A stretch of DNA of 58,600 nucleotides from a virus (Duplodnaviria > Caudoviricetes). A model generated the notes under the pieces. That model did not search any database, was not told where the DNA came from, and worked only from the letters and a program-made list of their open reading frames with translations. Each line of letters starts with the position of its first letter. Positions within the stretch are counted from its first letter, which is position 1. The stretch lies in IMG/VR virus record IMGVR_UViG_3300011114_000862, positions 1-58,600 of that record; one strand, given 5' to 3'. Of the stretch, positions 1-56,850 are shown piece after piece. The translations under genes and the position numbers were made by a program.

Positions 1-150
1 GTTTAATACTCTTATTATACCTTGTTTAATACTCTTATTATACCTTGTTTAATACTCTTATTATACCTTGTTTAATACTCTTATTATACCTTGTTTAATA
101 CTCTTATTATACCTTGTTTAATACTCTTATTATACCTTGTTTAATACTCT
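1..150. repeat. Perfect 23-bp tandem array (GTTTAATACTCTTATTATACCTT x6.5), truncated by window start
   Basis: Identical units start at 1, 24, 47, 70, 93, 116, with a partial unit at 139-150; no spacers. Confidence 0.97.
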
Positions 151-176
151 ATTTTCTTGTCGTCTAAGGCGGTATA

Positions 177-205
177 AGAATACCACAGCACTGTATAATT
201 GTCAA
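177..205 (-). promoter_or_regulatory. Sigma70-type promoter pointing into the 23-bp array
   Basis: Minus strand TTGACA (205-200), 17 nt, TATTCT (182-177). Confidence 0.65.
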
Positions 206-232
206 TACCCCCAGTAAAACCTACATATTTCC

Positions 233-259
233 CACATAAATCACATAAATCACATAGAT
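233..259. repeat. 9-bp tandem repeat CACATAAAT x3 (third is CACATAGAT)
   Basis: Units at 233, 242, 251. Confidence 0.8.
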
Positions 260-269
260 TTGAAATTAT

Positions 270-277
270 TATAAATA
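270..277 (+). promoter_or_regulatory. T4-type late promoter TATAAATA
   Basis: Exact T4 late consensus, with no ORF downstream. Confidence 0.55.
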
Positions 278-300
278 ATAACATCTAAGATATTCATAGA

Positions 301-402
301 GCAGCACTTGAACTCTCCTACGGGACCAAGAGGTAACAATCTGACAGGGTAGACGAGATACTTTATATAATAACAAGAGGGAGTTAGTACGCGGTCTCCG
401 GC
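301..402 (+). ncRNA. Candidate structured, pseudoknotted ncRNA
   Basis: GC-richer island; AACTCTC (311-317) pairs with GGGAGTT (379-385); loop CGGGACC (321-327) pairs with GGTCTCCG (393-400); follows TATAAATA. Confidence 0.4.
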
Positions 403-571
403 TCAATAAAATCGTTGGTATAACAAGGTTATATCAGTAATCAGTCTAAGTGATAACAATACAGTTGTAGTTAATAAAGCAAAAGACCCCCTTAGTGGTC
501 TGATAGAAACTCTTTTCTAAAATCATATAGAATAGAGTGATTTTGTTGTATCATCATATATTCCTTTACGA

Positions 572-600
572 TTGACATACACAATAAATTGTGCTATTGT
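572..600 (+). promoter_or_regulatory. Sigma70-type promoter with palindrome in the spacer
   Basis: TTGACA (572-577), 17 nt, TATTGT (595-600); CACAAT-AA-ATTGTG at 580-593. Confidence 0.5.
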
Positions 601-612
601 TCGTCATGTAAT

Positions 613-1040
613 ACTTCGTGTATTACATTTTACATTTCACAATTCACTTCGTTATTATGTCAGTAAATATCTCATAAACTTCGTTATTCAATTATACCGA
701 GGTTTTACTTCGTGTATCTTCAAGTAATTTATATACTTACTTCGTTATACTGACAAATACTTAGTATTGGATTACAATGAAAGATTGGTCTTTAATGGTT
801 AGATATCAAATAACAAAAAGTATCATACCCTAGGGGGGTATAGTAATTCTAATCAATCGGAGCAGTTAACACTTCGTGTATGTTATCCATAAGGTATTCT
901 AATGCCCCTCACAGTTTGTGTTAGTATTAGAAAATATTATTATATCTAACAGTCCATTCTTAATTATCACATACCCTAGGGGGGTATGGTAATTCTAATC
1001 AAACAGTAGTGTGTATAAACTAGCACGAACACTTCGTTAT
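613..1040 (+). repeat. Seven dispersed ACTTCGTTAT / ACTTCGTGTAT motifs
   Basis: Copies at 613, 646, 678, 707, 739, 871, 1031, all in the same orientation. Confidence 0.85.
824..1002. repeat. 33-bp direct repeat pair CATACCCTAGGGGGGTATRGTAATTCTAATCAA with internal hairpin
   Basis: Copies at 824-856 and 970-1002 with one mismatch; ATACCC/GGGTAT stem. Confidence 0.9.
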
Positions 1041-1070
1041 TACAATTAAACAGTGGTGTTTAATTGTAAT
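1039..1070. other. Perfect 14-bp inverted repeat (hairpin or cruciform)
   Basis: ATTACAATTAAACA-GTGG-TGTTTAATTGTAAT. Confidence 0.85.
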
Positions 1071-1303
1071 TGACAGTTATATTGTATTGTTGATGATTGT
1101 TATTATAAACCGTTGGTGGTTATAAAAACGCGGGTCCCTTGTAAGCTATAAACCTTCACCTGAGAGAGTGTTAATATCAAAGACATTAAAAAAATTTTTC
1201 AGATTACAAAATCAACTAAAAAACCATTTTAGTATAAAAAAATTTTACAAGTAAAAAATCAAATTAAATATATAAAACTCAGGGCACAAACAACAAGAGA
1301 ATT

Positions 1304-1456
1304 ATGAAATTAGAGTTCGACGAATATGAGAGAGATATTCTCATAGAAACCATTCAACATAGGTTAGAGACAGATGAGGATTTAATTCTCTCAGAGAGTA
1401 GAAAGGACGAAATACAAGAACTACTTCGTAAAATAGAAGAAGATGAATACTTATGA
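1304..1456 (+). CDS. Small acidic hypothetical protein, 50 aa (not in ORF track)
   Basis: MKLEFDEYERDILIETIQHRLETDEDLILSESRKDEIQELLRKIEEDEYL*; purine-rich leader. Confidence 0.7.
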   Translation: MKLEFDEYERDILIETIQHRLETDEDLILSESRKDEIQELLRKIEEDEYL

Positions 1457-3589: not shown

Positions 3590-3622
3590 ATAAATATTAT
3601 TGATTCAACTCAATTATAAATA

Positions 3623-5917: not shown

Positions 5918-8900
5918 ATGTCAGATATCCAAAAGGTAAAAATTTCAAATATTATTGAAAATCAGATACCAAGTTTTCTAAATGAAGATTCACCGTTGTT
6001 TAGAGAATTTCTAGAGCAATATTATATTTCATTGGAACATGAAACTGGCACATTTGATGTAATAACTAATCTTCCACAATATAAAAGTATTAGTAATTTT
6101 AATACTATAACTATTGGAGGGTCATTATTCATTAAAAGTACAAGTGCGACTTTAGATCCATCTACTCCAAATACTATAGTTGGAATTGATACATCTAAAC
6201 TTACACTGAATGATATTATAGAACCTATAGATTCTTACATACTTCCAAATACAGCTATATCTTCTATTGGGGATAATTCTATAGAAATTAGTAGGAATCA
6301 TTTAGTTTCTTCTGAAATTTCTACTATAGAGATTGGAGTAGTTACACAATACTGCAAATTAACTTCAAATGTTAGTGCTTTTGATACAGTTATAAATGTG
6401 AATACTACTGTAGGATTCCCCGATACCTATGGATTGCTTAAAATTGATGATGAAATAATTACCTATAAAGGAAAAACTGATACTTCTTTTACAGAATGTG
6501 TAAGAGGTTTTAGTGGAATATCAAATCTACAAAAAACATTATCTACAGAAGAACTTGAGTTCAACTCAACTTCTACCTCCGATCATTTACAAATTTCAAG
6601 TTCAACAAATCTTCCAAATCAAGTAATAAATTTAAATATAGAATTTTATCAAAAATTATTTGAAAAATTTAAATATCAATTTCTACCTGGATTTGAAAAT
6701 AGAGAATTTTATCCAGATTTAAATTTACAAAATATATTATCAAAAGCAAAAGACTTTTATATTTCAAAAGGAACTGATATTTCTTTTAAAATTTTATTCA
6801 ATATTCTTTTTGGTAAGCAAGTAACAGTAATAAAACCTCAAGATTATCTGTTTAGAACATCAGATAATTTATATTTCAAGACTAAAAATATTTTAGTCAA
6901 ACATATTGATGGAAATTTAGATTTATCTAAAATAAAAGGAAAAACTCTATATCAAGATATATCCACCACAGAAATTGCTAGTGGATCAATTTACAATATA
7001 GAAGTTAGACCTACAGATGATGGGCAGATTTATGAAATTTCATTAGATTACTCATCTACAATCTCTAATTTTAATGTAACTGGAACCACTTATATTTCAG
7101 AAAATGTCAGCACTAATTCAAATGTATTAACTGTAGATTCTACTGTTGGATTTTCTAAATCAGGAACAGTTTTAATTTATTCTGAGGATTTATCTTACAC
7201 AAAAACATTAACTTATACTGACAAAACTAATAATCAATTCTTAGGTGTATCTGGAATTGATATACCATTAAAGTATAATTATAAAGTTATATATAATGAT
7301 TTTGCATATTTGTATGATGATAATTCAGAAAAAGTAACATTCCAAATTATCACTGTAATTACTGATATTAATGTTTCTCCATCTTCAAATTTAAGAGTTG
7401 GTGATAAAGTATCACTTCTAGGAATTGGGAAAGATCTATCCGATATTAATGAATTCAATACTTGGATTTATAATATTCCTGTAACTCATAATATAAAAAA
7501 AGTTATTAAAATTGCACCAACAATCTGGGAAATTTCATTTTATGATGACATACAATTCTATTATGATGACAGTGTTATATTAACTAATCCAGATGATGTT
7601 AATGATACTGAAATAAAGTTGAATATATCTCCTAAAAATTTAAATACAATCTTAGTTTCCACTGGATTAGATATTTCCAGTAAAACATTGGTTAAAAAAG
7701 TTATCAGAAAGGGTTCAACTAATTATAATAAATTTTCAGAAATTAATTCATATACTGCAAATATTCAAAATGCGTATATTGATAATAGTTCGAATAATAT
7801 GTATGTAATGTCATCTGGAATTCCAGATTATGAAATACTAAGTCGTGAGAAATTAGTATATTTAACTACAGATGCATCTCCCACAGGACTAACTAATATA
7901 ATCAATACTGTTGATGAAAATGGAGTTGAATGTAGACATTATTTTTATAATGGTGAGCAAGTAAAATTCATTCCATCATCTAATTCTAAAATAGGTCTAT
8001 CTACCGGTACATATTACATTAAAATTATTGGAAGTTATCCAGACAGTAAGCAGATAAGTTTAACATATAGTCAATCACAACTATTTAATGAGAATTACAT
8101 AGATTTAATTTCTAGTACTGGAGTATCTTCTAGTGGATATATTGTAAAGAAAAATTATGAAAATAAAATATTAAAGCATCAGAAATTATTCAAAAAAATT
8201 AATTTAGTCAAAAATAATATAAACTATCAAAGTAAAACCGAAAGATCTATCAATAATAGAGAAGTTGGTATATTGGTTAATGGTATAGAATTATACTCTC
8301 CTACATTATATGATGAAAATATTTACTATGGAGCATTAGATTCAGTTTTTATATCAGATTCTGGTTCAAATTATGATGTAATCAACAAACCAAATGTAGA
8401 AATATTAGATTTAGATAAAAATTTAAATCCCATAGGATCTGGAGCAGATATTATTCTAAATGTATCTGGATCTATAGAACGAGTTGAAGTAACTACTCCC
8501 GGTTACAATTATGTTTTACCACCAGATATAACCTTAGTTGGAGGGAATGGATCTGGTGCAATATTAGAATCCAATTTAGTTTCGTCAAATGTAATTTCTG
8601 GATTTAGGGGTGATGCTGATGGCATTAATGTTAATGAAATAACTTTCATTGATAATCATAATTTCAATAATGGAGAAGAGGTAGTATATGATTCAAACTC
8701 AAATTCAAACATATCACCACTATCACATAATTCAAGATACTTTGTAGGTGTTATTTCGAATAAAGTAGTTCAATTATACAATAATAATAATGTTGGTATT
8801 AATACCATAAATTTTGTTGGATTTAGTTCTGGATTCCATTATTTCAAATCAGTTTTAAGTAGAAATACTGTTAGTGAAATTAAAGTTATATCTAAAGGTG

Positions 8901-11900
8901 TAGATTATGCAAATAAATCAGTAGTAGTTCCATCCATATTATCTTATAATAATGAAGATAATGGAATTAATACTTTTGATGATTATATTTTTGCAAAAAA
9001 TCATAATTTTAAAAGTGGAGATGATATTGTATATTCTACAACTGGAACTGCAATTGTTGGTTTAGCAACAACCACAACTTATATTTCAACAGTATTGGAC
9101 AATGACAGATTTAAGTTATCTGAAGTAGGAATAGGAATAACTTATAAATCTAATTATGAAAATAAAAAATATGTAAAGTTACAAACTCTAGGTACTGAAG
9201 AACATACCTTTGCATATCCACCTATCCAATTGTTAATCAATAATATCTCCAAATCTGGAACATATATTGAACCAGTTTTAAATCCAGTAGTATTAGGACA
9301 ACTTGATAGTGTTTTTATAAAAAATGTAGGAAGTAAGTATGGAACTCCAGATATTATAAATTTCCATAGACGACCTGATATTATCATATCTAATGTTAAA
9401 TCTGAATGTATATTGAAGCCTGTAATTTCAAATGGAGAAATTATCGATGTTCATATTCTAAATTCTGGAGTGGGGTATGACAGTACTGTAGATATTACAG
9501 TTATCGGAGATGGATTATTTGCAGATATTCGTGCAACTATAATATCTGGAAGAGTTGATTCCATTGATATTAAAAATGGTGGAGTTGGTTATATACAATC
9601 AACTACACAGTTACGTGTTTCCAACAGAGGAGTTGGTGGAAAATTAATTGCAAATGTTAAGAATTGGCAATTGAATCAAATAGAAAAAAATAAAGGATTT
9701 ATAAATTCAGATGATGATGGATACCTAATTCCAAATATAAATGAAGACTATGGATTGAAATATATTCATTTTTACTTACCGAAAGTACTTCGTAAAAAAA
9801 TAAATGATAATATTGATTTAAATGGAGTTGAAAATCCAACCAATGCATCACCTATAGTTGGATGGGCATATGATGGTTCCCCAATCTATGGTCCATATAT
9901 TAAAGAAAATGGCATTGTACGCAAAATTGAATCCAGTTACAATTTAATTCCTACATTAGTATCTACAGATTTGCGTCCAAATTTCTATAATGGATTTTTC
10001 ATTCAAGATTATCAATATTTTGAAAATAATGGAGATTTGGATAGAAATAATGGAAAATTTATTGTTAATTCAGATTTCCCAAATGGAACTTATGCCTATT
10101 TCTGTACTCTAGATACTAATACAAATGTTCCAAAATATCCATATATCGTAGGAAAATATTTTAAAAATGATGTAGAGTTAGATAACTATAACCCGATTAT
10201 AAATCAAGATGATAGTTTAAACGTAATAGATATTTTAACAAGAAATATTTCACCATATTATGCAAATTCTAATACTTCAAATTATAATCCAATTAAACCA
10301 ATCTATAAAAAGTATAGTCAAGAATTTACAGTTAAAGAAACATTAAAATCTGGAATTGATAATATATCAATTTATATTTCTGGAGATAATTATAAAGTAG
10401 GAGATACTTTAGAATTTGACCATTCAACCAGTGGGGGTCAAGATGCTTCAGCATCAATCTCTAGAATTTCTGGGGTGGGGATGTCTTCCTTTAATATTGG
10501 TATTACTACAATATCACCCATAAAATTCTCAAATTCTGGAAATAATATAACTGCAATATCAACTTCACCTCATAATTTACAAAATGGTAGAATAGTTAAT
10601 ATAACTGGAATATCATCGTTCAATTTTTCATATTTAGAAGGATTTAAATTTATTTTTGTCCCCTCAGCAAAAACTGGAATAACCTCACATATATTACCAC
10701 CAACACTTCCAGTTGGAATAGCAACATTTATACCAGTAACTTCTACAGTTGGATTTGTAGTTGGTGATTTTATAGGTATTACTACTTCAAATAATACTCA
10801 AGAAATTGCTCAAATAACCAATGTCTCTATACCAGAATCTAGATTATATGTAGAACGATTATCTAATATTCATAGTGGTATATGTACTGTAGGAGTTACT
10901 ACAATTACATTATTACCTAGAAGTTTTGTTTTTGCAGAACGAGTAACTTCTCCTATTAAAATTAATAAAGAATTCCCATTACATTTTGATCCAAATTACC
11001 ACATTGCATATGGAAATTCACCTAAAAATTACAATCTTCCAGTAACAAATCCAGTAGTAAATGTAAGTATTCCCCAACAAGCAATATACATCCCAAATCA
11101 CAATTTGAATACTGGAGATTCAATATTATATGGAATAGGTCCTGCTAAAGTTGGGATTGGATTATCTGCATCTGCAACATATGGAGGAACACCATTTAAT
11201 CTGACTGATAATCAATTAGTATATGCAGTAAAACTAGATAAAGATTTTCTAGGAATATCTACACAAGGACCAGTAGGAATTACTACGTTATTCTTTATTG
11301 ATAAACCCAATTATGGTTACCATAGTATAACTAAAGTATCACCAAATGTAGTTGGAGTTGTAGAAAATTATGCAATAAATGTAGGTACTACCAAATCGCA
11401 CGGATTGGAAACTGGTGATAAGGTTAGATTTAATCTCAATTTTAATGAAACTCAAAATATAAAATTTAAATATGATTCCATTAATAGGAAAATAACTTCA
11501 GATGAAACAAGTCTCAATTCTAGTCAGGTAAATGTAGGAGTAAATACTTATTCTACAATTTATATTCCAGAACATCCATTTAATGATGGAGATAAAATAG
11601 TATATAATGTTGGTATTGGATCAACTGTTGGAGGATTGATTAATAGTCAATCATATTATGTTTTGACTAATCAAATAGATTATATAAGGTTGTGTCAGTA
11701 TTACTCTGATGTGAAAGTAGGTACTTCTATAAGTTTCACCTCCCAAGGTACTAACGATCATACATTATCTAAAATAAATCCACAAATTAATTCGGTAGAT
11801 AATAATAATATTGAATTCGATTTATCTGATACGAGTCTAGTAGATTCCGAGTTGATAATTTATAAAGATATTAATTTTGAAAATGAGTTGGAAACTTATA

Positions 11901-14900
11901 AATTACAATCATCCAGTGCTCCTGCAGGAACAACTGGATCCACATTAACCATATTAATTGATGAAACTACACCTAAAACTTTATATTACAATCTAGTGAG
12001 TACTTCTCCAAGTTCTCTTAAAATTCAAATATCATCAGATATAGATGTAATCCATAGGAACCAAATAAATATTTCAAAGAGTAATTTAGTTGAAGACTTT
12101 CCAATAATATCAACTGGAACAACAGCATTTGAGATAAATTTACATAAAAAACCCAATTTCCATACATTAAGTATATCTGGATTATCTACTGTTAAGTATG
12201 ATACAGATTCACTTAATGTATTAGGACCAATCTCCGAATTTAAAATTTCAAATAGTGGTAAAAATTATTTTAAAGTGCCTAGAATTTCTAAAATTAATTC
12301 TAGACTGGGAACTGGATCTATACTTAGAGCAAAATCATCAACTATTGGAAAAATAAAAACTTTAGATATAACTAAAAATGGATATGATTACCCATCAGAT
12401 ATTACATTAAAACCTCAGTTCAATGTACCCATATTATGTGAAATAAATGACATTTTTAGAGTTAATAATATTGAAATTGTTACAGGTGGATCTGGATATA
12501 ATGTTGCCCCAATATTAAAAGTTATTGGTAATGATACCATCAAGTTATCTGCTAAACTTACAGGTGGGGTAGTATCTCAGGTAATTGTAGATCAAAATAC
12601 TAATGATTTAAACCAACCTTTAGAAATTGTAACTTTAAAAAATTCAAATGGATATGATATCGATTCTATTACTGTATCTGGGAATATAGTTACATTAGAA
12701 TTAATCAATTCAGATCCAAGATTATTCCCATTAAGTGGTACATTTCCATTTAATCTTGGAGATGAAATTTTTGTTGAGAATTGTAGAATTTCACCATTGT
12801 CAGTAACAACAGCAGGCGTTACTACATTATATGATAATTATAATTCTAAAGATTATGGGTATATATTCTATACCGTTATTGCAGTCGATTCAGTAAGTTG
12901 TACTGTATCTTACAGTATGTCTGGGGTAAAATCTGGACTCAATTTGGGAACTTATTCAAATGTAAGTGGATATGGAAATGTAATAAACAAAAAAAATATA
13001 GCACAATTTAAAATGAATATAATTGATGATCTCAATTATATTTCAAATGAGAAGGTAACTACTCCAACATTCTCTGCAAATGTTATGGAGAATGGATGGG
13101 ATAATGATACTAACCAACTGAGATTATATAATACTAAAGGTGAATTGGTAGTTGGGGATAATTTACTAGGTGAATTGTCTAGATTGAATGGAGTGATAGT
13201 TAATACCACTACATTTGATTTACATGGTTCTATTGGAAGCAGTACCAATAAAATTTCGTATCTAGATGACAATACGGGATTTTTAAACGATGATCGACAA
13301 GTTCTATCTGATAATGACTATTATCAGAAATTCTCATATTCACTACAAAGTTCAGTATCCTACACAGAATGGAGAGAATCTATACATTCATTAGTTCATC
13401 CTTCAGGGTTTAAGTCTTTCTCAAATCTAGAAATATTTGAGAAATCTCAATCTATGAGTCCAAAATTAAGTCAAAATACCAGAGGAATCTTGATTAATAT
13501 TGATAATTTATCATCTATGTACAATAGATATAATTTTTCTATGGTCACTGAAGATGAATTGCTACCAGATGGTTCCATAGAAAGAATAGTATTTCCAGAT
13601 GCAGTAAGTTTAAAACCATATATTCTAAACCAAACTAATAAAGTTATATCAATTGATGATATAAGTGATAATTTTAATGGAAATAATAATTTAATAGTTA
13701 TTGCAAATTTAATAGCATCTTTTGATTCTAATGATTTAAATATAATTGGAATTTCTACTATTGGATTACAAATAAATGATCATTTAGATTTTTCACCATA
13801 CTTATCTCCAACTGATACTTATATCACTAATATAGGAGTATCTAATGTTGGAATTAATATTCCACATAAAGTTAAAACTGGAATTCAAACTTCATCAGTT
13901 ATTGTTAGAAGAAAAATTAATAATAGTCAAACTGTTGGTATTTCGTCTTTCAAATTAACAAATAATGGGACTTCACTATTCTATCATGAATTTGATTCAA
14001 CTGGAATTTCATCAGTAGTAAATTTAATTGATAACAAATTTACAATTACAAATCACAATTTCCAAACTGGTCAAAAAATCATATATGATGTTGGAACTGG
14101 AACTTCTATAGGAATTGAAACTTCATCTACATTACTTTTTGGTGATGTTTTAATGCAAGTTGGAGTAAGTACGGGTACTGCAATTTATGAAAATGGGTAT
14201 AATTCAGCAATAAGTTCCCAAATTACTGGAATATCTACAAATACCATCGGATCTCCAACATTAAGTTATGGATTAATTTCACCATACTTAGATGGAATTT
14301 CATCTGGAATAGGAACTGGTGCTAAATTTAGTGTTATTATTATATACAATTCAGGAAATCCAATATCAACATCAATAGTTTTGAGAGAAGGTGGATCTGG
14401 GTATTCAATTGGAGATACAGTTTCAATTGCAGGTACTTATTTGGGAGGATCATCTCCTACAAATGATCTATCATTTGTAGTTACTATTGTAGCAGGAACA
14501 CAAATTATTAGTGGAGTAAATTCATCTTATACTAATATTCCAGGTTATAATTTAATAGGAAGTGGAAGTAATGCTACATTCAATGTCTCTAGAAATTCTG
14601 TTGGTATTGCTACAACAATTGCAGTAAATGTTGGGGGTAAGTATTATACATTATCTGATGTAATTGGAATTTCTGGAACTTATATTGGTGGAACTAATCC
14701 CACAGATAATCTATATTTCTCACCAACAGATTTAGGTTCTGACATATTACCACCAACTTTATATGTCAATAAAATTGATTCAAATAATTTTAGAGTTTTG
14801 GCAAATGCTGGTGGATCTGAGCTCAATTTAACTTCATATGGAATAGGAACTCATTCATTTGTAGAAGAAATACCAAATACAAATACCACAATATTAATTG

Positions 14901-17900
14901 ATAATATTATTCAGAGTCCAATTTATAATCGCAATCTTACATATACACTTTCAAGTAATGTTGGAATTGGAAGTACTGTAATTTATTTAAATTCAGGAAT
15001 ATCATCATTATCATCTATAGATTTACTAAAGATAGACTCTGAGATATTTAAAATTGAATCTTTAGGTATAGGTGCATCCAATGCAGTAGGGGTCTATAGA
15101 GCATCCTTAGGTACGGTAGAAACCTCACATACCACATCAACTACCGTCAATGTACTTAGGGGGGATTACAATGTCATCAAGGACATTATACACTTCAATT
15201 CACCACCATATGGTGGAATATCATATGGTGAGATATCAAAATTATCTGGAAATGTAGTCACATCTCAACCTCTATATGTAAAATCATCTTTCCAAGGTAG
15301 AGTGTATTCTAGAAGTTTCTCATATAACACTACACTAAACGATAAAAATATTATTCTTGATGATATTTCTACTCAATTTACAGGTGAAAATACTATAGTT
15401 GGAGTATATACTGGAACATTAGATTCAACCATATTAAAATCTATAACTGGAATTATTACAACAGGAATTAATATTGGAGATGTAATAACTGAAAAAGCAT
15501 CTTACATATTACCTAGTACATATATAACTTCCATTGGAATTGGTAGTATTACTATAAATAAATCACATTTAATTTCATCGGGAATCTCAACAACAGATTT
15601 GGATATTACTAGATCTACATATAAATTAACTACTAGTAGTTCCAATGTAATCGGAATTTATACCAATACAAATTCCTCAGTAGATATTAACAATAATCCA
15701 GTAGTATTAATTAACAATATATACCAAATTCCTGGTAAAGATTATATAATTGACACTCCAAATCAAAATACAATTAAATTTATTAGTGGTACTCCAAATT
15801 CAGGTAAAATAGTAAGAGTTGGTATTCAAACTGGAGTTGGATATCAATTGTTGGTTGGTGCAGCAGCAACAGTATCAGTATCCATTGCTGGAACTATTTC
15901 ACAGATATCCCTAAATGGATTTGGTTCTGGATATAGGATTGCTCCAAATATAACCTTAAATTCTTCTGTTGGTAGTGGTGCAAGTTTCACATCTACAATT
16001 GGTTTAGGTGGAACTATAACATCTATAGGAATTATCAATCCTGGTATAGGATATACAGATTCACCTCTCCCAAGTGTAATTATTGATCCACCATTACCAT
16101 ATAACAGACTCAATTTAGACTATATTTCTGGAATTTCTACTGGAAGTGGAACTGGAGCAAAAGTTTCAGTGCAAATCAGTTCAAATTCTGAGATTTCACA
16201 ATTTAATATAGATTCAAATGGAATTGGATATAAAGTTGGAGATTTATTGGATGTAGTTGGTATTGCAACTGATCCAACATCAACATCATTTACACCATTT
16301 AGAATTAATGTCCTAGAGGTATTAAATGATAAATTTAGTGCATATTATCCAGGACAATTTGTACTTTTTGATGATATTTCCTCACTTTTCAATGGAGTTA
16401 GGAAGAAATTCCGTATATTTGAAACTCAAAATGGAGTTACTAGTGTAGTTTCACTCAAATCAGATGTGGGATCTGACTTAGATTTACAGAATAATTTATT
16501 TATTTTCATTAATGATGTATTACAAACTCCAAATGAAGCATATACATTTAATACTTCTAGAATTACATTTACAGAGGCACCCAAATCAAATTCCAAATGT
16601 AGTATTCTATACTATAGGGGATCAAGTTTAGATGTTAATGAGGTTATTCCTCCTAGTACTATAAAAGAAGGTGACGAAGTTCAAATTGATGAAAATATTA
16701 ATGATTTATACGATAGATCTCAATTTGATAGAACTGTTAAGCAAATTATATCCTCAGATAGTTTAGATACTTTTAATTATACTGGATTTGGTATAGATGC
16801 AGATCCAACAAAATATAGACCATTACATTGGAAAAAACAGACTTATGATAAAATTATCAATGGTGTATTATATTCCAAATCTAGACCAGATTTACATTCT
16901 AGACCTACACCAATATCAACAATAATAAAAGATATTATTGAAACTGATGATGAGATTTATGTTGATAATGCATTCCCACTATTTACCAATATCGATAATA
17001 TATCAGAAGAAAATAATGATGTCGTAATATCGGAAGATATTGATAAAACTCCTGCTTCTGCAATAATAACAATCAGTCCAACATCAACTTCAATATCAAG
17101 TATATCCATATTAAACTCAGGTTCGGGATATATAAATACTCCCTCAATTTCAATTTCTTCTAGTAAAATTTCAACAAAGGATCCAATTTATAATTGGATT
17201 AGTATCTCCGGCATTTCAACATATCAAAATGTGAAATCATTATCATATAATACTCAATTAGTTTCAGTTGGAACTAGTTGTTTCGTTGCAGTTAGTGCAG
17301 ATGGTACATATTGGATTCCAAAACTTACTCCATATGCAACTTCTATTGATTTTAATGATGTAACCCATGATGGATTAGGTAATTTTATAATTTGTGGAAC
17401 TTCCGCAAATATTGTTAGAAATTATGGAACTTCAAATATATACACTTGGTATAAATTTGATCTAAAATCATCAACATTAGATCCACTTGGAAATAAAGTT
17501 CTAGGTATTAGTACTTATTCTGGCAATTTCAATGGAATAACATATTTCAAATTAAATAAAAGTTTAATTGCTGTCGGGTCCAGTGGAGGTCTATTCTCAT
17601 CTGTTGGGGTAGGGTTAACATACTTTACAGAAACCTATAATCCATTGGGGACATCTATAACATTAAATTCAGTAACTAATAATACTACCACTATTGTTGC
17701 AGTTGGAAATAGTGGTTCAATAATATATTCAACAAATTCTGAAAACTGGACTGAAGTATTATCAGTTCCAACAACTAATAATTTAAATAAAGTTATTTGG
17801 GATGGTAATAGATTTATTGCTGTTGGTGATAGTGGTACAATTATCAGTTCCAATGATGGAATTTCAGGATGGTCTAATATTACGAGTGGATTAGTAGTTA

Positions 17901-18775
17901 ATATTAATGGTATTAGATATTATAATAATTTATATATTGCTCTTATCAATTCTTCTGATATATTATATTCTTCAGATTTAATCAATTGGACTTACAGAAT
18001 TACAAATCAAACAAACAATATAAATGATTATATATTTATAAATGATGTCTCAATAGGTGTAGGAAATTCCGGTACATTAATGTATGCTACTCCAATATTT
18101 AATAGAGCAACTGGAATTGCATCTGTATCTTCAGGTATAGTTACTTCAATAACAGTTACAAATGCTGGGTTTGGATATTCTAGTTCAAATCCACCATCAA
18201 TTATTATATCTTCGGAACCTCCAAAAGTTGAAAAATTATTCTCAATAAAAGCAATTGGAGATTTTGGAAATATAACTAAGATTTCAGTTGGGGGAACAAC
18301 CTTAGATTTTACTCTAAAATCTGAAACTTATGATAATTCCACTTTAGGTATCGGATATTCATCATTAAATATTTTTGGAATTCAAAATAGTCAACTATCA
18401 GTTGGAGATTATTTCGTAATTCAAAATAGTAATTCAGTTTGCAGTCATGCACTTACTTGCATCAACAAATTTGACAATAGTGTAGTTGGAACTGCAACTT
18501 CATTTATAGATGGAGTTTATATTGTAGGTGATGTAACTCCAGTAGTTTCTGGAATAATTACCGTTACCTGCTATTTCCAGAGACAACCTGGGGGTGGAAA
18601 TATTAATGTTAATGTCGGTTCTAATAGTTATTGTGGAACTTATTCCTGGGGTAAAATATATGATTTTGAAGATAGATCAAGAAAAACACCAGTTAGTTTT
18701 AGTATAAGTTCCAATGATAGTTTGGTCGGTTTGACAACTTCACCAAAATTATACCGAACTAAACAATTGATATAA
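5918..18775 (+). CDS. gp7: Giant gp7-like baseplate wedge / structural protein, 4285 aa
   Basis: Lies between gp6 and gp8; N-terminal ENQIPSF..FLEQYY, KDFYISKGT; YYQKFSYSL..LVHPSGFK; many repeated beta modules. Confidence 0.75.
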   Translation: MSDIQKVKISNIIENQIPSFLNEDSPLFREFLEQYYISLEHETGTFDVITNLPQYKSISNFNTITIGGSLFIKSTSATLDPSTPNTIVGIDTSKLTLNDIIEPIDSYILPNTAISSIGDNSIEISRNHLVSSEISTIEIGVVTQYCKLTSNVSAFDTVINVNTTVGFPDTYGLLKIDDEIITYKGKTDTSFTECVRGFSGISNLQKTLSTEELEFNSTSTSDHLQISSSTNLPNQVINLNIEFYQKLFEKFKYQFLPGFENREFYPDLNLQNILSKAKDFYISKGTDISFKILFNILFGKQVTVIKPQDYLFRTSDNLYFKTKNILVKHIDGNLDLSKIKGKTLYQDISTTEIASGSIYNIEVRPTDDGQIYEISLDYSSTISNFNVTGTTYISENVSTNSNVLTVDSTVGFSKSGTVLIYSEDLSYTKTLTYTDKTNNQFLGVSGIDIPLKYNYKVIYNDFAYLYDDNSEKVTFQIITVITDINVSPSSNLRVGDKVSLLGIGKDLSDINEFNTWIYNIPVTHNIKKVIKIAPTIWEISFYDDIQFYYDDSVILTNPDDVNDTEIKLNISPKNLNTILVSTGLDISSKTLVKKVIRKGSTNYNKFSEINSYTANIQNAYIDNSSNNMYVMSSGIPDYEILSREKLVYLTTDASPTGLTNIINTVDENGVECRHYFYNGEQVKFIPSSNSKIGLSTGTYYIKIIGSYPDSKQISLTYSQSQLFNENYIDLISSTGVSSSGYIVKKNYENKILKHQKLFKKINLVKNNINYQSKTERSINNREVGILVNGIELYSPTLYDENIYYGALDSVFISDSGSNYDVINKPNVEILDLDKNLNPIGSGADIILNVSGSIERVEVTTPGYNYVLPPDITLVGGNGSGAILESNLVSSNVISGFRGDADGINVNEITFIDNHNFNNGEEVVYDSNSNSNISPLSHNSRYFVGVISNKVVQLYNNNNVGINTINFVGFSSGFHYFKSVLSRNTVSEIKVISKGVDYANKSVVVPSILSYNNEDNGINTFDDYIFAKNHNFKSGDDIVYSTTGTAIVGLATTTTYISTVLDNDRFKLSEVGIGITYKSNYENKKYVKLQTLGTEEHTFAYPPIQLLINNISKSGTYIEPVLNPVVLGQLDSVFIKNVGSKYGTPDIINFHRRPDIIISNVKSECILKPVISNGEIIDVHILNSGVGYDSTVDITVIGDGLFADIRATIISGRVDSIDIKNGGVGYIQSTTQLRVSNRGVGGKLIANVKNWQLNQIEKNKGFINSDDDGYLIPNINEDYGLKYIHFYLPKVLRKKINDNIDLNGVENPTNASPIVGWAYDGSPIYGPYIKENGIVRKIESSYNLIPTLVSTDLRPNFYNGFFIQDYQYFENNGDLDRNNGKFIVNSDFPNGTYAYFCTLDTNTNVPKYPYIVGKYFKNDVELDNYNPIINQDDSLNVIDILTRNISPYYANSNTSNYNPIKPIYKKYSQEFTVKETLKSGIDNISIYISGDNYKVGDTLEFDHSTSGGQDASASISRISGVGMSSFNIGITTISPIKFSNSGNNITAISTSPHNLQNGRIVNITGISSFNFSYLEGFKFIFVPSAKTGITSHILPPTLPVGIATFIPVTSTVGFVVGDFIGITTSNNTQEIAQITNVSIPESRLYVERLSNIHSGICTVGVTTITLLPRSFVFAERVTSPIKINKEFPLHFDPNYHIAYGNSPKNYNLPVTNPVVNVSIPQQAIYIPNHNLNTGDSILYGIGPAKVGIGLSASATYGGTPFNLTDNQLVYAVKLDKDFLGISTQGPVGITTLFFIDKPNYGYHSITKVSPNVVGVVENYAINVGTTKSHGLETGDKVRFNLNFNETQNIKFKYDSINRKITSDETSLNSSQVNVGVNTYSTIYIPEHPFNDGDKIVYNVGIGSTVGGLINSQSYYVLTNQIDYIRLCQYYSDVKVGTSISFTSQGTNDHTLSKINPQINSVDNNNIEFDLSDTSLVDSELIIYKDINFENELETYKLQSSSAPAGTTGSTLTILIDETTPKTLYYNLVSTSPSSLKIQISSDIDVIHRNQINISKSNLVEDFPIISTGTTAFEINLHKKPNFHTLSISGLSTVKYDTDSLNVLGPISEFKISNSGKNYFKVPRISKINSRLGTGSILRAKSSTIGKIKTLDITKNGYDYPSDITLKPQFNVPILCEINDIFRVNNIEIVTGGSGYNVAPILKVIGNDTIKLSAKLTGGVVSQVIVDQNTNDLNQPLEIVTLKNSNGYDIDSITVSGNIVTLELINSDPRLFPLSGTFPFNLGDEIFVENCRISPLSVTTAGVTTLYDNYNSKDYGYIFYTVIAVDSVSCTVSYSMSGVKSGLNLGTYSNVSGYGNVINKKNIAQFKMNIIDDLNYISNEKVTTPTFSANVMENGWDNDTNQLRLYNTKGELVVGDNLLGELSRLNGVIVNTTTFDLHGSIGSSTNKISYLDDNTGFLNDDRQVLSDNDYYQKFSYSLQSSVSYTEWRESIHSLVHPSGFKSFSNLEIFEKSQSMSPKLSQNTRGILINIDNLSSMYNRYNFSMVTEDELLPDGSIERIVFPDAVSLKPYILNQTNKVISIDDISDNFNGNNNLIVIANLIASFDSNDLNIIGISTIGLQINDHLDFSPYLSPTDTYITNIGVSNVGINIPHKVKTGIQTSSVIVRRKINNSQTVGISSFKLTNNGTSLFYHEFDSTGISSVVNLIDNKFTITNHNFQTGQKIIYDVGTGTSIGIETSSTLLFGDVLMQVGVSTGTAIYENGYNSAISSQITGISTNTIGSPTLSYGLISPYLDGISSGIGTGAKFSVIIIYNSGNPISTSIVLREGGSGYSIGDTVSIAGTYLGGSSPTNDLSFVVTIVAGTQIISGVNSSYTNIPGYNLIGSGSNATFNVSRNSVGIATTIAVNVGGKYYTLSDVIGISGTYIGGTNPTDNLYFSPTDLGSDILPPTLYVNKIDSNNFRVLANAGGSELNLTSYGIGTHSFVEEIPNTNTTILIDNIIQSPIYNRNLTYTLSSNVGIGSTVIYLNSGISSLSSIDLLKIDSEIFKIESLGIGASNAVGVYRASLGTVETSHTTSTTVNVLRGDYNVIKDIIHFNSPPYGGISYGEISKLSGNVVTSQPLYVKSSFQGRVYSRSFSYNTTLNDKNIILDDISTQFTGENTIVGVYTGTLDSTILKSITGIITTGINIGDVITEKASYILPSTYITSIGIGSITINKSHLISSGISTTDLDITRSTYKLTTSSSNVIGIYTNTNSSVDINNNPVVLINNIYQIPGKDYIIDTPNQNTIKFISGTPNSGKIVRVGIQTGVGYQLLVGAAATVSVSIAGTISQISLNGFGSGYRIAPNITLNSSVGSGASFTSTIGLGGTITSIGIINPGIGYTDSPLPSVIIDPPLPYNRLNLDYISGISTGSGTGAKVSVQISSNSEISQFNIDSNGIGYKVGDLLDVVGIATDPTSTSFTPFRINVLEVLNDKFSAYYPGQFVLFDDISSLFNGVRKKFRIFETQNGVTSVVSLKSDVGSDLDLQNNLFIFINDVLQTPNEAYTFNTSRITFTEAPKSNSKCSILYYRGSSLDVNEVIPPSTIKEGDEVQIDENINDLYDRSQFDRTVKQIISSDSLDTFNYTGFGIDADPTKYRPLHWKKQTYDKIINGVLYSKSRPDLHSRPTPISTIIKDIIETDDEIYVDNAFPLFTNIDNISEENNDVVISEDIDKTPASAIITISPTSTSISSISILNSGSGYINTPSISISSSKISTKDPIYNWISISGISTYQNVKSLSYNTQLVSVGTSCFVAVSADGTYWIPKLTPYATSIDFNDVTHDGLGNFIICGTSANIVRNYGTSNIYTWYKFDLKSSTLDPLGNKVLGISTYSGNFNGITYFKLNKSLIAVGSSGGLFSSVGVGLTYFTETYNPLGTSITLNSVTNNTTTIVAVGNSGSIIYSTNSENWTEVLSVPTTNNLNKVIWDGNRFIAVGDSGTIISSNDGISGWSNITSGLVVNINGIRYYNNLYIALINSSDILYSSDLINWTYRITNQTNNINDYIFINDVSIGVGNSGTLMYATPIFNRATGIASVSSGIVTSITVTNAGFGYSSSNPPSIIISSEPPKVEKLFSIKAIGDFGNITKISVGGTTLDFTLKSETYDNSTLGIGYSSLNIFGIQNSQLSVGDYFVIQNSNSVCSHALTCINKFDNSVVGTATSFIDGVYIVGDVTPVVSGIITVTCYFQRQPGGGNINVNVGSNSYCGTYSWGKIYDFEDRSRKTPVSFSISSNDSLVGLTTSPKLYRTKQLI

Positions 18776-20401: not shown

Positions 20402-23400
20402 ATGCCTCAAAATACTAACTTAAATATTTCTCCATATTTTGATGATTTTGACGAAAATAATGATTACTATAAAGTATTATTTAAACCTGCAGTTTCAGTA
20501 CAAACTAGGGAATTAATTACTTTACAATCAATATTACAAAATCAGATAGAAAAATTTGGTAGGCATTTTTTTGAAGATGGTGCTATGGTTATCCCGGGTC
20601 AAGTGGGATATGATTCAAATTATCACTCAGTAGAAATTGATTCTACACATTTGGGAATACCAGTTTCAATTTACATATCACAATTAGTTGGAAAAAATAT
20701 TCAAGGTCAATCTAGTGGGGTTACTGCCACAGTAGATAATATTATAACAGATCTACAATCTGAGAGATCTAACTTTACACTTTATGTAAAATACACTGCA
20801 TCTGGAAAATCTGGGCAATCTGTATTTAAAGATGGAGAAAATATAATAACTTTAGATAATATAGATTATGGAATTTCATCTATACAATCTAATAACACAA
20901 TAGCAACTACTATCCTTTCAAATTCTACCTCAACTGGATCTGTTGCAAAGATATCACAAGGTGTTTATTTTATAAGAGGATTTTTTGTATCAGTCCAAGG
21001 TGAGTCTATAATTTTAGATCAATATACTAACACACCTTCATATAGAATTGGGTTAGAAATTCAAGAAGAAATAGCAATAGCATCCAACGATAATCTGGAT
21101 TTATTTGATAATGCACAAGGATTTGCAAACTATACTGCACCTGGTGCAGATAGATTGAGAATTAAAACCACCCTAATAAAAAAATTATTAACTGATACAG
21201 TAGATACAAATTTTATAGAATTATTACAAGTAGAAAATGGTGAAATCAAGAAATATATAAAAACCACACAGTATAGTTACATTAAAGATGAATTAGCTAG
21301 AAGAACATATGACGAATCTGGAAATTATTCCGTAACCCCATTCCAGTTAACAATAAGAGAATCACTAGATAATTTAATTGGAAATAATGGAATATATGAT
21401 CAAACCCAAACTACTTCTGCAGGAAATACTCCATCAGATGACTTGGGAGTTATTACGATTAGTCCTGGAAAAGGGTATGTTAAAGGATATGAAATTGAAA
21501 CAATAACCACTGGTGCTTTAGATTTTAAAAAACCACGAGATACCTCTACATTATCAAACACTAATATTCCATTTACTGTTGGAACTCAATTACGAGTAAA
21601 TAATATTTTTGGGTCTGTTAATTTGGGATTAGGAACTGGAACTAGTATTGATTTATTGGATAGGAGAACTACACTATCTGGAGTAAATACCGCAAGTAAA
21701 ATTGGAACTGCTAAGTTATACGACTTCACTCCATATTCATATGATAGCACATATCCAACTAAACATGAATTTGAAATTTCACTATTTGATATACAAACAT
21801 ATTCTAAATTAACTTTAAATTCCAATATAACAATTTCACCCTCTGCATTTATAGAAGGAACTAGAAGTAATGCTAATGGTTATCTTGCAGTTGGAGGTGC
21901 ATCAACTTCAATTTTAAATCTATATCAAGTTGCTGGGCAATTTATTAAAAATGAACCTATACGAATAAATGGATCCGATACCTATACCTCTGCAGGTATA
22001 ATTCAAAAATATACCGTCAGTAATTTTTATGATTATAACATAGATGATATAAAGCAATTATATCATCTACCATCAAGTGGTATAGGTACATTTAAATGTG
22101 ATACCAAATTATCCAAATCTACACTAATAACTGATGCGGGAACTGCATTTACAATCTATCCTTCATATTCCCTGGGACCTGTTATTAGTTGTGGAAATCA
22201 AGATTTTACAAAGAAAGTTAGAGTTGGTGATATATTGTCATATACTAAACCTGGAGAAACAATACCAACATATAACCGAGTAACTAACGTTGGTATTCAA
22301 CTGGCAGGAATTTATGTTGAAAATGTTCCTAGTGTATCTGGTATATGCTCAGGTATAATGTATTCTTCAAATACTACATTTACAGATCTTAAGAGAGTAT
22401 CCCCAGAAGTCTTAAACTTAGATCAGACATATTTATATTCAAAATTAAGTAAGAATAATATAAAAAGACTAGATTTATCCAATTCTACAATACAAATTAA
22501 TAGAAGTTACAATGAAACCATATCAAGTAATACTTTCTATAAAATATTTGAAACTGATCCAGATTTAACTCCAGTAAATTGGAATTCTGCTGCATACTCT
22601 ATCACCTATAAAAATACTGGAACAGTTGAAATTTTAGATAGTAGTAGATTTAAAATAATTGGTACAGGGGTATCATTTTCAGGATTAACTGAAACTGGTC
22701 CAGCAATTATAACTACCACATACACAAAATCAAAACCTGCAGTTAGGAAAAAGTCATTTTCTAGATGTTCATCATTAACCATATCCAGATCATCAAATGT
22801 ATCTTCTGGACTTGGTGCTGGTACTATAGATGACGGATTGACATATAATACAGTATATGGAACTAGAGTTCAGGATAAAGAAATATCATTAAATGTATGT
22901 GATGTAAGTTCAGTTTTGGGTATTTTTGAATCTACTACTCAAAATGATCCAAATCCACCAAGTATAATATTTGATACTTTATCTGCAGATATCTCAGGAT
23001 TTGTTAGAGGTGAGTTATTAGTGGGTTCCGTTAGTGGTGCCGTAGCATCATATATTGAATCTTCAGGTTTAAATAGTGCATATATTGTGTATAGAAATAC
23101 TAATGTATTTACAGTTGGAGAAGATATAACTTCAAGTGAAACTAAAATTACTGGTGTTATAAATTCTATATCTGATGGAGATATTGATATTACTGGTAAT
23201 TATATTTTTAATGATGGGCAGAGACTTGAGTATCTAGATTACTCAAGAATAACCAGGAAATCTACAGCATCAGCACCATTGAAAAAATTAAAGATAATTT
23301 TTAACAATTATACTATATCCAGTTCAGATTCTGGAGATTTTGTTGGAGTGAATTCTTATGATATAGAACGATATAATAATGATATAAGAACTATAAATGA

Positions 23401-56040: not shown

Positions 56041-56413
56041 ATTGAAGGATTGGATGAATTCAATCAATCAGACAAAGATTAACCTAATGGACGAAGACCC
56101 AGATTCAAAAAAAGATTATAAACCTTATATAATCAATCGATGTTTATCTGGAGAACTTGATTGTATAATGTATGTAAATGAAATGAATCTTAATAATTCT
56201 TTAGATAAAGACATGCAGTATTCATTTTATCTAAATAGTTTGAGGAAAAGGAAGAGGTATTCTCCCTGGATCTATAAAGATAAGATAGTAGATTTAGAAT
56301 GTGTTAAGAATTACTATGGATATAGTAATGAAAAAGCATCTCAAGCATTGAAAATTTTATCAAAAGATCAAATTGATTACATAAAAACTAAACTTGATAT
56401 CGGTGGAATGTGA
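56030..56413 (+). CDS. gp62: Clamp loader small subunit gp62
   Basis: YKPYIINRCLS, NEMN, QYSFYLNSLRKRKRYS, YYGYSNEKA. Confidence 0.92.
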   Translation: MTYELKDWMNSINQTKINLMDEDPDSKKDYKPYIINRCLSGELDCIMYVNEMNLNNSLDKDMQYSFYLNSLRKRKRYSPWIYKDKIVDLECVKNYYGYSNEKASQALKILSKDQIDYIKTKLDIGGM

Positions 56414-56415
56414 AA

Positions 56416-56850
56416 ATGACTAATGAACCCCAAGTACAATGGACACCATCTTTGATGGTTGAAGTTTTATTAAATGAACCTGATGATTTCTTAAAGGTTC
56501 GTGAAACTTTAACTCGTATTGGTGTAGTTTCTAGAAAGGAAAAGAAATTATACCAATCAGTACATATTTTACATAAACAAGGTAAATATTATCTTACTCA
56601 TTTTAAGGAATTATTTGCTCTTGATGGTAAATTTGCCAATATTACAGTAAATGATATTCAGAGAAGGAACCGTATTACGCAACTCATATCCGATTGGGGA
56701 TTGGTAACTATTGTATATCCTGAGCAGGTTGTGGATATTGCTCCTTTAAATCAAATAAAAGTTATTGCATTTCGTGAGAAGGGAGAATGGCAACTCGAAT
56801 CTAAATATAATATAGGTAAAAAAAATAAGATTGAAGTTGAGGAGAAATAA
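56416..56850 (+). CDS. regA: Translational repressor RegA
   Basis: PDDFLKVRETLTRIG, LYQSVHILHKQGKYY, HFKELFALDG; ATG 56416 (GTG 56410 possible). Confidence 0.95.
   Translation: MTNEPQVQWTPSLMVEVLLNEPDDFLKVRETLTRIGVVSRKEKKLYQSVHILHKQGKYYLTHFKELFALDGKFANITVNDIQRRNRITQLISDWGLVTIVYPEQVVDIAPLNQIKVIAFREKGEWQLESKYNIGKKNKIEVEEK

Follow-up and report, generated by a model that had tools for sequence, protein, structure and literature searches.

The DNA analyzed here (the window) comprises the 58,600 nucleotides (nt) of the Caudoviricetes record IMGVR_UViG_3300011114_000862, a 58.6-kb viral record estimated to be ~31% complete. Near its left end lies a conserved intergenic element, which we describe as a candidate gene for a structured noncoding RNA. 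The first 8 kb of the window matched 368 phage records at 60 to 90% nucleotide identity (among them, 306 Synechococcus phages, 35 records named "Cyanophage," and 20 Prochlorococcus phages), and these matches fall over a glycosyltransferase gene and baseplate-wedge genes. A related locus encodes a protein of the Kyanoviridae Gp96 family. On the basis of these two observations, we assign the window to a T4-like cyanomyovirus.

The element occupies part of a 1.3-kb stretch without sizeable open reading frames (ORFs), and the next ORF in the window lies ~750 nt downstream of it. The G+C content is 0.365 to 0.405 over positions 201 to 500, compared with 0.255 to 0.31 in the flanks. This agrees with an earlier reading made from the letters without database searches (i.e., the sequence-only reading), which had described a GC-richer island preceded by TATAAATA at 270 to 277; the motif is found at these positions. 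The same reading had reported no ORF within 270 to 520, which is correct for the plus strand (none of at least 30 amino acids [aa]) but not for the minus strand, where a 45-aa frame (269 to 406) is the only ORF of at least 30 aa across the core.

No Rfam 15 family matched at the gathering score, either in the whole window or in 11 homologous loci (85,458 bases), so that the Infernal comparison suggested by the sequence-only reading returned no family. The 4227 covariance models searched include those for RNase P, transfer-messenger RNA (tmRNA), signal recognition particle RNA, 6S RNA, riboswitches, self-cleaving ribozymes, and cyanophage motifs. At E values of ≤10, region 1 to 1400 gave four chance-level matches, none of them on the plus strand within 270 to 520, and positions 1450 to 1900 of locus L107 (L numbers denote loci) gave two, both at chance level. 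ARAGORN found no tRNA or tmRNA genes in the window. The sequence-only reading had likewise been unable to match the region to tRNA, tmRNA, or RNase P. A literature search, in which supplements were not covered, retrieved no account of such an RNA.

The 24-mer at 304 to 327 is present in six IMG/VR contigs, and five more pattern scans extended the set to 30 contigs (6, 6, 7, 11, 23, and 30 stretches per scan). A metagenome pattern scan returned eight records, seven of which carry the element; match L094 was dropped as a chance 20-mer match inside a collagen-like repeat gene. These IMG/VR and metagenome copies represent 24 distinct variants. Since the large collections were scanned with exact patterns only, the family is probably larger than seen here. 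Two pattern scans of 185,579 prokaryote genomes (one per species) yielded no copies, and blastn searches of 50,697 phage records (queries: window 1 to 1400 and the L110 variant) yielded no match to the element.

Two architectures were distinguished, i.e., a short type resembling the window and a long type (L107, L112, and L115 to L120) with ~70 to 100 extra nt in the 5' half of the element. Near-identical blocks (e.g., 26 to 49 nt around 300 to 348) are shared by contigs whose flanks are unalignable, and mean column identity over 268 to 425 is 90% in alignment A2, again with unalignable flanks. The conserved blocks are separated by 1-nt indels and by inserts of variable length. As judged from these alignments, the conservation of the region as an element is far beyond chance. 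A covariance model built from 15 sequences (R1; 152 positions and 18 pairs in hairpins P1, P3, and P4) scored 61.7 to 161.7 bits on the 24 distinct variants. In the window, R1 found a single copy (299 to 444, plus strand; 138.5 bits; E, 4e-28), and the element is also single copy in all four other records of 49 to 60 kb.

Fold, strand, and transcription signals

A predicted fold consisting of a row of local hairpins is well supported by comparison of the variants (Table 1). From 5' to 3', the element comprises a 5' hairpin; P0 with an 8-by-8 internal loop and P1; P2; P3; junction J3/4; P4; an A-rich linker; P5; and a putative terminator. Across 24 distinct rows, 95.7% of the cells of P1, P3, and P4 were paired, compared with 80.1% after shuffling, and 14 of the 18 pairs changed on both sides, compared with 6.9 expected; neither value was reached by any of 500 shuffles. 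When the partners were moved by 1 to 3 columns as a control, 39.6 to 54.8% of the cells were paired and one to four pairs showed two-sided changes. An earlier 20-row run gave 96.0% paired (83.3% after shuffling) and two-sided changes in 12 of the 18 pairs. Its alignment had taken in two half-aligned long-type rows and one spurious row (L103:2157-2325; E, 0.55), which was rejected as a homologue and remained among the rows of the 20-row tests.

Table 1. Predicted features of the element (positions refer to the window)
Feature	Position	Strand	Details and basis
T4-type late promoter motif (TATAAATA)	270..277	+	Exact motif; predicted promoter
Predicted transcript (~265 nt)	~284..548	+	Ends inferred
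Variable 5' hairpin	284..300	+	UCUA 284-287/UAGA 297-300; RNAfold of leader, -1.4 kcal/mol; weak
P0	302-304 with 341-343	+	RNAalifold on alignment A6; tentative
8-by-8 internal loop, closed by P0 around P1	305-312 (CACUUGAA)/333-340 (GUAACAAU)	+	Nucleotides nearly invariant in short type
P1 hairpin	313-332	+	Loop UACG 319-322; variable 3' bulge 326-329; covariation and RNAalifold
P2 variable region, usually a hairpin	346..364 (346-351 with 359-364)	+	RNAfold; alignment unreliable here
P3 hairpin	380-383 with 396-399	+	GGAG/CUCC; conserved 12-nt loop 384-395; 100% of cells paired; RNAalifold
J3/4, A-rich junction (GGCUCAAUAAAAUCG)	400..414	+	Nearly invariant across variants
P4 hairpin	415-424 with 428-437	+	Loop AAG; two-sided changes in 6 of 7 modelled pairs
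P5 hairpin	484-488 with 497-501	+	AGACC/GGUCU; preceded by a conserved AAUAAA-type motif
Terminator-like hairpin and U-tract	509-519 with 528-538; U-tract 541-547	+	-9.4 kcal/mol; followed by AUUUUGUUG

P1 is formed in the window by C313-G332, U314-A331, C315-G330, U316-A325 (or A329), C317-G324, and C318-G323. Two-sided changes occur in 6 of its 7 pairs, and its helices 1 and 2 are paired in 100% and 96.3% of the cells. In the outer stem, CUCU/AGAG of the window is replaced by CUUU/AAAG in L101 and L104, by CUUAU/AUAAG in L103, and by CUUC/GAAG in L114, and L110 and L111 have GC/GC in place of the inner CC/GG. The loop UACG is replaced by UGCG in L102 and by UAAG in L110, and the 3' bulge varies freely (ACCA, ACC, ACCAA, AUAA, UAA, and GGUCA). 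In P3, pairs 380:399 and 382:397 switch jointly to A-U and G-C (AGGG/CCCU) in L096 and L107. The stem sequence of P4 differs in almost every lineage. RNAalifold run on a MAFFT alignment not fitted to any structure (A6) also gives P1 and P3.

The remaining 5' features are more variable. Twelve rows have C-G and three have A-U at P0 pair 4:46, and the P0 stem is AUAAG/CUUAU (5 bp) in the L093 type, GCAG/CUGC in L104, and CUUUC/GAAAG (5 bp) in L114. In place of the 5' leader hairpin of the window, other variants have a different small hairpin, and the L093 type has none. The length and sequence of P2 differ per lineage (33 to 59 nt for short-type and >100 nt for long-type variants), and RNAfold gave a hairpin (-0.9 to -8.6 kcal/mol) in all eight variants folded. 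A screen of all column pairs of alignment A7 for long-range helices yielded isolated pairs only. Three further candidate stems (CUUG 307-310/CAAG 374-377, the P1 bulge ACC with GGU 393-395, and UAAC/GUUA) were rejected by eye as broken by variants. The strongest constraint is on unpaired nucleotides (305 to 312, 333 to 345, the P3 loop at 384 to 395, and 400 to 414) rather than on stems.

Positions 404 to 413 within J3/4 are complementary over 10 bp to the 3' tail of the RNA itself (539 to 548), with an energy reached by 8 of 200 shuffles. The corresponding complementarity extends over 13 bp in L101 and L108 (0 of 200 shuffles) and is strong in L004 too, and a U-to-C change in L096 keeps a pair. 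It is absent in L093, L110, L008, L109, and others. Such pairing may either shield the 3' end or reflect a coincidence of composition.

The alignment contains 29 G-U cells, and the closing wobble of P4, U415-G437, is kept in 22 of 24 rows. Read from the minus strand, these G-U pairs would turn into mismatches (C-A for U415-G437), and we therefore place the RNA on the plus strand, in agreement with the direction of the promoter and of the U-tract. Every one of the six frames contains at least two stops in all 19 variants compared, the longest ORF is ≤32 aa on the plus strand and 25 to 59 aa on the minus strand, and no ORF is conserved across these variants.

A single TATAAATA precedes the core in each of 19 representative loci (121 to 215 nt upstream of the P3 anchor) and in each of 7 later loci (102 to 234 nt), in differing surroundings. 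No conserved -35-like hexamer was seen upstream by eye. With a TATAAATA-type promoter and no -35 element, the predicted unit is of the T4 late type. At T4-type late promoters, transcripts start at a usual spacing downstream of the motif, from which we place the 5' end of the transcript; the 3' end is placed from the hairpin and U-tract. Other plus-strand copies of TATAAATA stand just before ORF starts at 3615, 34937, 39595, 42480, and 48416. A review describes NATAAATA as the late promoter of cyanomyoviruses, resembling TATAAATA of T4 (PMC2984593).

The two small hairpins noticed in the sequence-only reading (~420 to 433 and ~484 to 500) are present and correspond to P4 (415 to 437) and P5 (484 to 501). 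L004 has the P5 stem of the window with another loop, other lineages have CAGGA/UCCUG, and L109 has UAGGA/UCCUA. Owing to the A-run before it, P5 was scored by the consensus scan as resembling a minus-strand terminator. A hairpin followed by a U-rich tract was found 73 to 150 nt after the core in all 19 representatives with a crude scan of our own, and in all 19 this hairpin had a better energy than 20 shuffles did on average. A clear UUUUUU follows the hairpin in L096, L114, L115 to L118, and L120.

Genomic surroundings

The element was found in two genomic contexts. In the first (the window, L004/5, L002/7, L104, L109, and L112), it lies ~1.0 to 1.4 kb upstream of a conserved glycosyltransferase gene, which is followed by gp25 and gp6. 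In the second (L093, L102, L008, and L110), it lies among small hypothetical, early-type genes flanked by GIY-YIG and HNH endonuclease genes. Eighty contigs that encode the closest glycosyltransferases were searched, ~45 of them with 1.5 kb or more of sequence upstream of this gene. On these, nhmmer found no copy (E ≤ 10); with R1, the best E value was 0.038, and there were seven weak matches, which are downstream of the glycosyltransferase gene. From its occurrence in two contexts and its absence from these 80 contigs, we regard the element as an accessory, self-contained unit. At L102, the gene directly upstream of the RNA gene (6798 to 7214) has a subthreshold match to ArdA (antirestriction; 18.9 bits compared with a cutoff of 27).

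The predicted terminator of the element is followed downstream by arrays of sigma-70-like promoters, accompanied by a repeated box. In the window, seven plus-strand copies of ACTTCGTK occur within 430 nt (613 to 1038) and adjoin sigma-70-like promoter matches; the whole window contains eight copies compared with 1.09 expected, a number reached by none of 100 shuffles. A related longer box (CATTCGTGATTAGATAAGATTCGTATAGA-like) occurs three times downstream of the RNA gene at other loci. The ACTTCGTK array probably represents early promoters or the binding sites of a regulator.

Several other repeats were observed. Window positions 1 to 150 form a perfect tandem array of 6.5 copies of a 23-bp unit (GTTTAATACTCTTATTATACCTT; 100% identical), and the record may have been cut inside this repeat. 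Cyanosiphovirus S-SKS1 has a like array (83% over ~107 nt) in an intergenic gap between hypothetical genes; in the element-side searches of the phage records, this repeat was the sole blastn match of window positions 1 to 1400. Just upstream of the late promoter, 233 to 256 is a direct repeat of CACATAAAT (9-bp unit; 2.7 copies), and L004/L005 have a ~21-nt unit with CATAAATCT twice upstream of the promoter; these short repeats include a partial late-promoter-like ATAAAT. Positions 824 to 856 and 970 to 1002 are two copies (97% alike) of a 33-nt unit with the palindrome TACCCTAGGGGGGTA, the first of which scored as resembling a minus-strand terminator. At 1039 to 1070, a perfect inverted repeat (14 bp; 4-nt loop) is the source of chance-level matches to Rfam microRNA families, and a perfect 9-bp tandem repeat (CTTATGAAC; 6.7 copies; 2599 to 2658) separates the glycosyltransferase gene from a speD-like ORF. 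Downstream of the baseplate-wedge genes, two very long ORFs (5918 to 18775, 4285 aa; 20402 to 27571, 2389 aa) presumably encode giant structural or fiber proteins.

Function and alternative explanations

We consider it likely that the element is a stand-alone, moron-like gene of a cyanomyovirus for a late-expressed, structured noncoding RNA of ~265 nt with its own promoter and terminator. This is the simplest reading of the conservation, of the covarying hairpins P1, P3, and P4, of a promoter motif shared by every variant, of the lack of a conserved ORF, and of the strand. On these comparisons, the predicted RNA represents a genuine and new family of structured RNAs in T4-like cyanophages, with a hairpin architecture. 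The general proposal of the sequence-only reading (i.e., a novel structured RNA behind a TATAAATA late promoter) is borne out by the same features and by the terminator-like end, whereas the comparisons speak neither for nor against the functions it suggested (ribozyme, packaging-associated RNA, or primer RNA).

In the mechanism that we propose, the late form of the phage RNA polymerase would start a few bases after TATAAATA late in infection, and the RNA would fold cotranscriptionally into a row of hairpins, be released at its own terminator, and accumulate as a free RNA. It would then act in trans through its near-invariant unpaired nucleotides. Constraint on unpaired nucleotides rather than on stems is typical of RNAs that present themselves to proteins or form tertiary contacts. 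No site complementary to 332 to 345 or 400 to 414 was found elsewhere in the 58.6-kb window (≤3 mismatches; the window being ~31% of the genome). For these two reasons, we favor a trans-acting RNA to which a protein of the phage or the host would bind (platform or decoy) over one that would act by long antisense pairing, and the near-invariant loops and junctions probably bind a protein. A bolder and rather unlikely version is that the RNA is one half of an undescribed late ribonucleoprotein (e.g., a decoy for RegA, a host RNase, or a defense sensor) or a new catalytic RNA with the invariant loops and junctions as its core; as a decoy, it would reset the expression of genes or immunity at a late stage of infection.

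T4-like cyanophages rank with the most abundant viruses that infect aquatic primary producers. As a predicted RNA gene, the element is compact and well delimited, with a testable structure, and its near-invariant unpaired nucleotides point to a specific partner. It is an accessory element in regions of small early genes and homing endonucleases, the usual seat of host-takeover and counter-defense functions. Should the partner be found, it would give a new RNA-based regulator or decoy for T4-like phages. Model R1 permits wider searches.

Several observations weigh against a stand-alone structured RNA gene. The minimum free energy (MFE) of 270 to 520 is -42.4 kcal/mol (z score, +1.10; +1.65 for the minus strand), and an equal or better fold is reached by 177 of 200 shuffles. 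The energy of our model (-35.7) lies well above the MFE of -52.6, which uses other long-range pairs, and the hairpins are short (4 bp in P3 and, in the window, 3 bp in P0). The alignment used for the covariation counts was fitted to the model and leans towards it, and a small number of lineages contribute much of the covariation. The window shows no enrichment of TATAAATA (15 copies compared with 21.1 expected). The terminator hairpin is AU-rich, was not listed by the consensus scan, and, in only 10 of the 19 representatives, outperforms the best of 20 shuffles. The protein-binding mode draws solely on the pattern of conservation, and blastn found no cultured phage with the element among the 50,697 phage records (S-PM2 included).

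The succession of promoter, conserved structured domain, and terminator is also the layout of an attenuator, and the element might thus be a cis-acting leader (riboswitch-like or a processive antiterminator of the put/EAR kind) that controls read-through. Consistent with this, P5 (CAGGA...UCCUG) overlaps the 5' strand of the outer terminator stem (GAUUCCU/AGGRGUC) in L008, L093, L109, and L110, so that the two would be alternatives, and in the window UAGAAA (503 to 508) could, by eye, pair with UUUCUA (513 to 518) instead of with the terminator. However, this overlap is absent in the window, L004, L002, L096, and L107, and a poorly conserved A-rich linker of 45 to 110 nt separates the conserved core from the terminator. 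The downstream genes vary with the context and have their own sigma-70-like promoters, and the distance to the next ORF in the window also argues against such control. With a shared terminator strand confined to some lineages and no fixed class of downstream gene, the element does not match the pattern of a transcription-attenuation riboswitch. Because the alternative terminator pairing is lineage specific and the downstream genes vary, an attenuator appears less likely than a trans-acting RNA, and we judge it unlikely overall.

The sequence-only reading had proposed a particular fold with 19 pairs, composed of an outer stem (S0, 304-308:386-390, GCACT/AGTAC), a nested stem (S1, 311-317:379-385, AACTCTC/GGGAGTT), and a pseudoknot (S2, 321-327:393-400) in which CGGGACC pairs with GGTCTCCG. 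All six segments are in place and complementary, and such an H-type pseudoknot might be a ribozyme or a conformer that alternates with P1 and P3. Homologues do not show the covariation expected of it, which is the outcome that the same reading had named as refuting it. The 19 pairs are 87.0% paired compared with 86.7% after shuffling (20 distinct rows; 228 of 500 shuffles reach this value), a level therefore explained by sequence conservation alone. A two-sided change occurs in 1 of the 19 pairs (reached by 440 of 500 shuffles), located in the mostly unpaired outer stem, and in none of the 14 pairs of S1 and S2. The outer stem is broken in most variants (pair 7:168 is unpaired in 18 of 19 rows and pair 8:167 in 8 of 19). 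L108 lacks CGGGACC through a deletion, and the segment is replaced in L104, L109, L110, L111, and L114; its proposed partner is unchanged in all of these, and S2 loses at least three pairs in the five with a replacement.

The pseudoknot and the hairpins P1 and P3 are mutually exclusive. The 3' strands of S1 and S2 pair with each other in P3, as indicated by the compensatory change to AGGG/CCCU. In favor of the pseudoknot, S1 can form through G-U wobbles in 13 of the 15 rows of A6, all one-sided changes seen in S1 are tolerated, and the strong conservation of the S1 and S2 segments limits the power of the covariation test against pairing. Nearest-neighbor energies (S1, -4.3; S2, -7.7; P1, -4.9; P3, -4.3; pseudoknot penalty not included) do not discriminate between the two models. 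No Rfam ribozyme family matched. Such cross-complementarity would arise anyway because the stems of P1 (CUCU/AGAG) and P3 (GGAG/CUCC) are similar. The specific fold of nested stems and pseudoknot is not supported, and we regard a functional pseudoknot as improbable. A pseudoknot that convinces the eye can arise merely from two hairpins with similar stems.

The long noncoding, repeat-rich surroundings (i.e., the 23-bp and 9-bp repeats and the ACTTCGTK boxes), the proximity of homing-endonuclease genes at some loci, and the patchy occurrence in two contexts would also suit an element acting as DNA (a replication origin, a protein-binding site, or a target of recombination or homing) or a selfish cassette without RNA function. 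We consider this very improbable, given that compensatory changes keep the hairpins, that conserved G-U pairs work on one strand only, and that promoter motif and U-tract have a consistent orientation throughout the variants. A small protein-coding gene, such as the minus-strand frame (43 to 59 aa in the window, L004, L002, L008, L104, L109, and L101), has next to no probability: the frame is not kept (longest minus-strand ORF, 25 aa in L096 and L102 and 31 aa in L093), it contains frameshifting 1-nt indels and variable-length inserts, and the conservation lacks three-base periodicity and includes blocks that are 100% identical.

Comparison with known systems

The pseudoknot model can be drawn with the strand order of H-type or hepatitis delta virus-like nested double-pseudoknot ribozymes, i.e., S1(5')-S2(5')-hairpin-S1(3')-S2(3'). 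Unlike in those ribozymes, its pairs do not covary, are lost in several variants, and conflict with the covarying hairpins.

RegA is the translational repressor of T4, with operators of an A/U-rich type, according to an excerpt of PMC3014915, and the window encodes a RegA homologue at ~56410 to 56850 (Pfam PF01818; 56455 to 56817; 149.4 bits; E, 1.9e-45). Like these operators, AAAAUCGUU (408 to 416; J3/4 and the start of P4) is A/U-rich with a 5' A-tract, and it agrees at 8 of 9 positions with the RegA consensus from SELEX given in the same excerpt. Unlike the operators, it has no start codon, and the consensus is that of T4 RegA, which may not be that of the cyanophage protein. Since AAAATYGTT occurs five times in the window compared with 4.2 expected, the likeness is within chance, and we treat it as a lead only. 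A site for RegB in the GGAG of P3 was rejected by eye because the RegB consensus, as excerpted from PMC3014915, does not fit.

Almost nothing is known about the late noncoding RNAs of T4-like cyanophages, and a single described example, an antisense RNA, was encountered here. According to an excerpt of PMC2984593, this RNA (CfrI of cyanomyovirus S-PM2) is ~225 nt long, is antisense to psbA and a homing-endonuclease gene, and has no known function. As far as that excerpt goes, the RNA predicted here resembles CfrI in being a noncoding RNA of similar size from a T4-like cyanophage. Unlike CfrI, the element is intergenic and lies opposite no annotated feature, and its secondary structure is conserved; S-PM2 gave no blastn match to it.

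Weinberg et al. (2010) reportedly identified structured RNA motifs in cyanophages and marine metagenomes by comparative genomics, which are said to be now in Rfam. The present element was likewise found by conservation and covariation in intergenic phage DNA, and its host virus is of the same kind. The earlier motifs are said to be mostly cis regulatory and to stand upstream of a fixed class of gene, whereas the element has no fixed downstream gene class and corresponds to no Rfam 15 family at the gathering score.

Phage morons and stand-alone phage small RNA genes exist, such as the one for the short terminated transcript from the lambda late promoter. The element resembles them as a self-contained unit of promoter and terminator between unrelated genes, with a patchy distribution and, as predicted here, a short transcript from a late promoter. 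The likeness drawn here is one of arrangement. To our knowledge, no antiterminator system is known in T4-like phages, and the element further differs from morons and the lambda transcript in that its predicted product is a conserved structured RNA with covarying helices.

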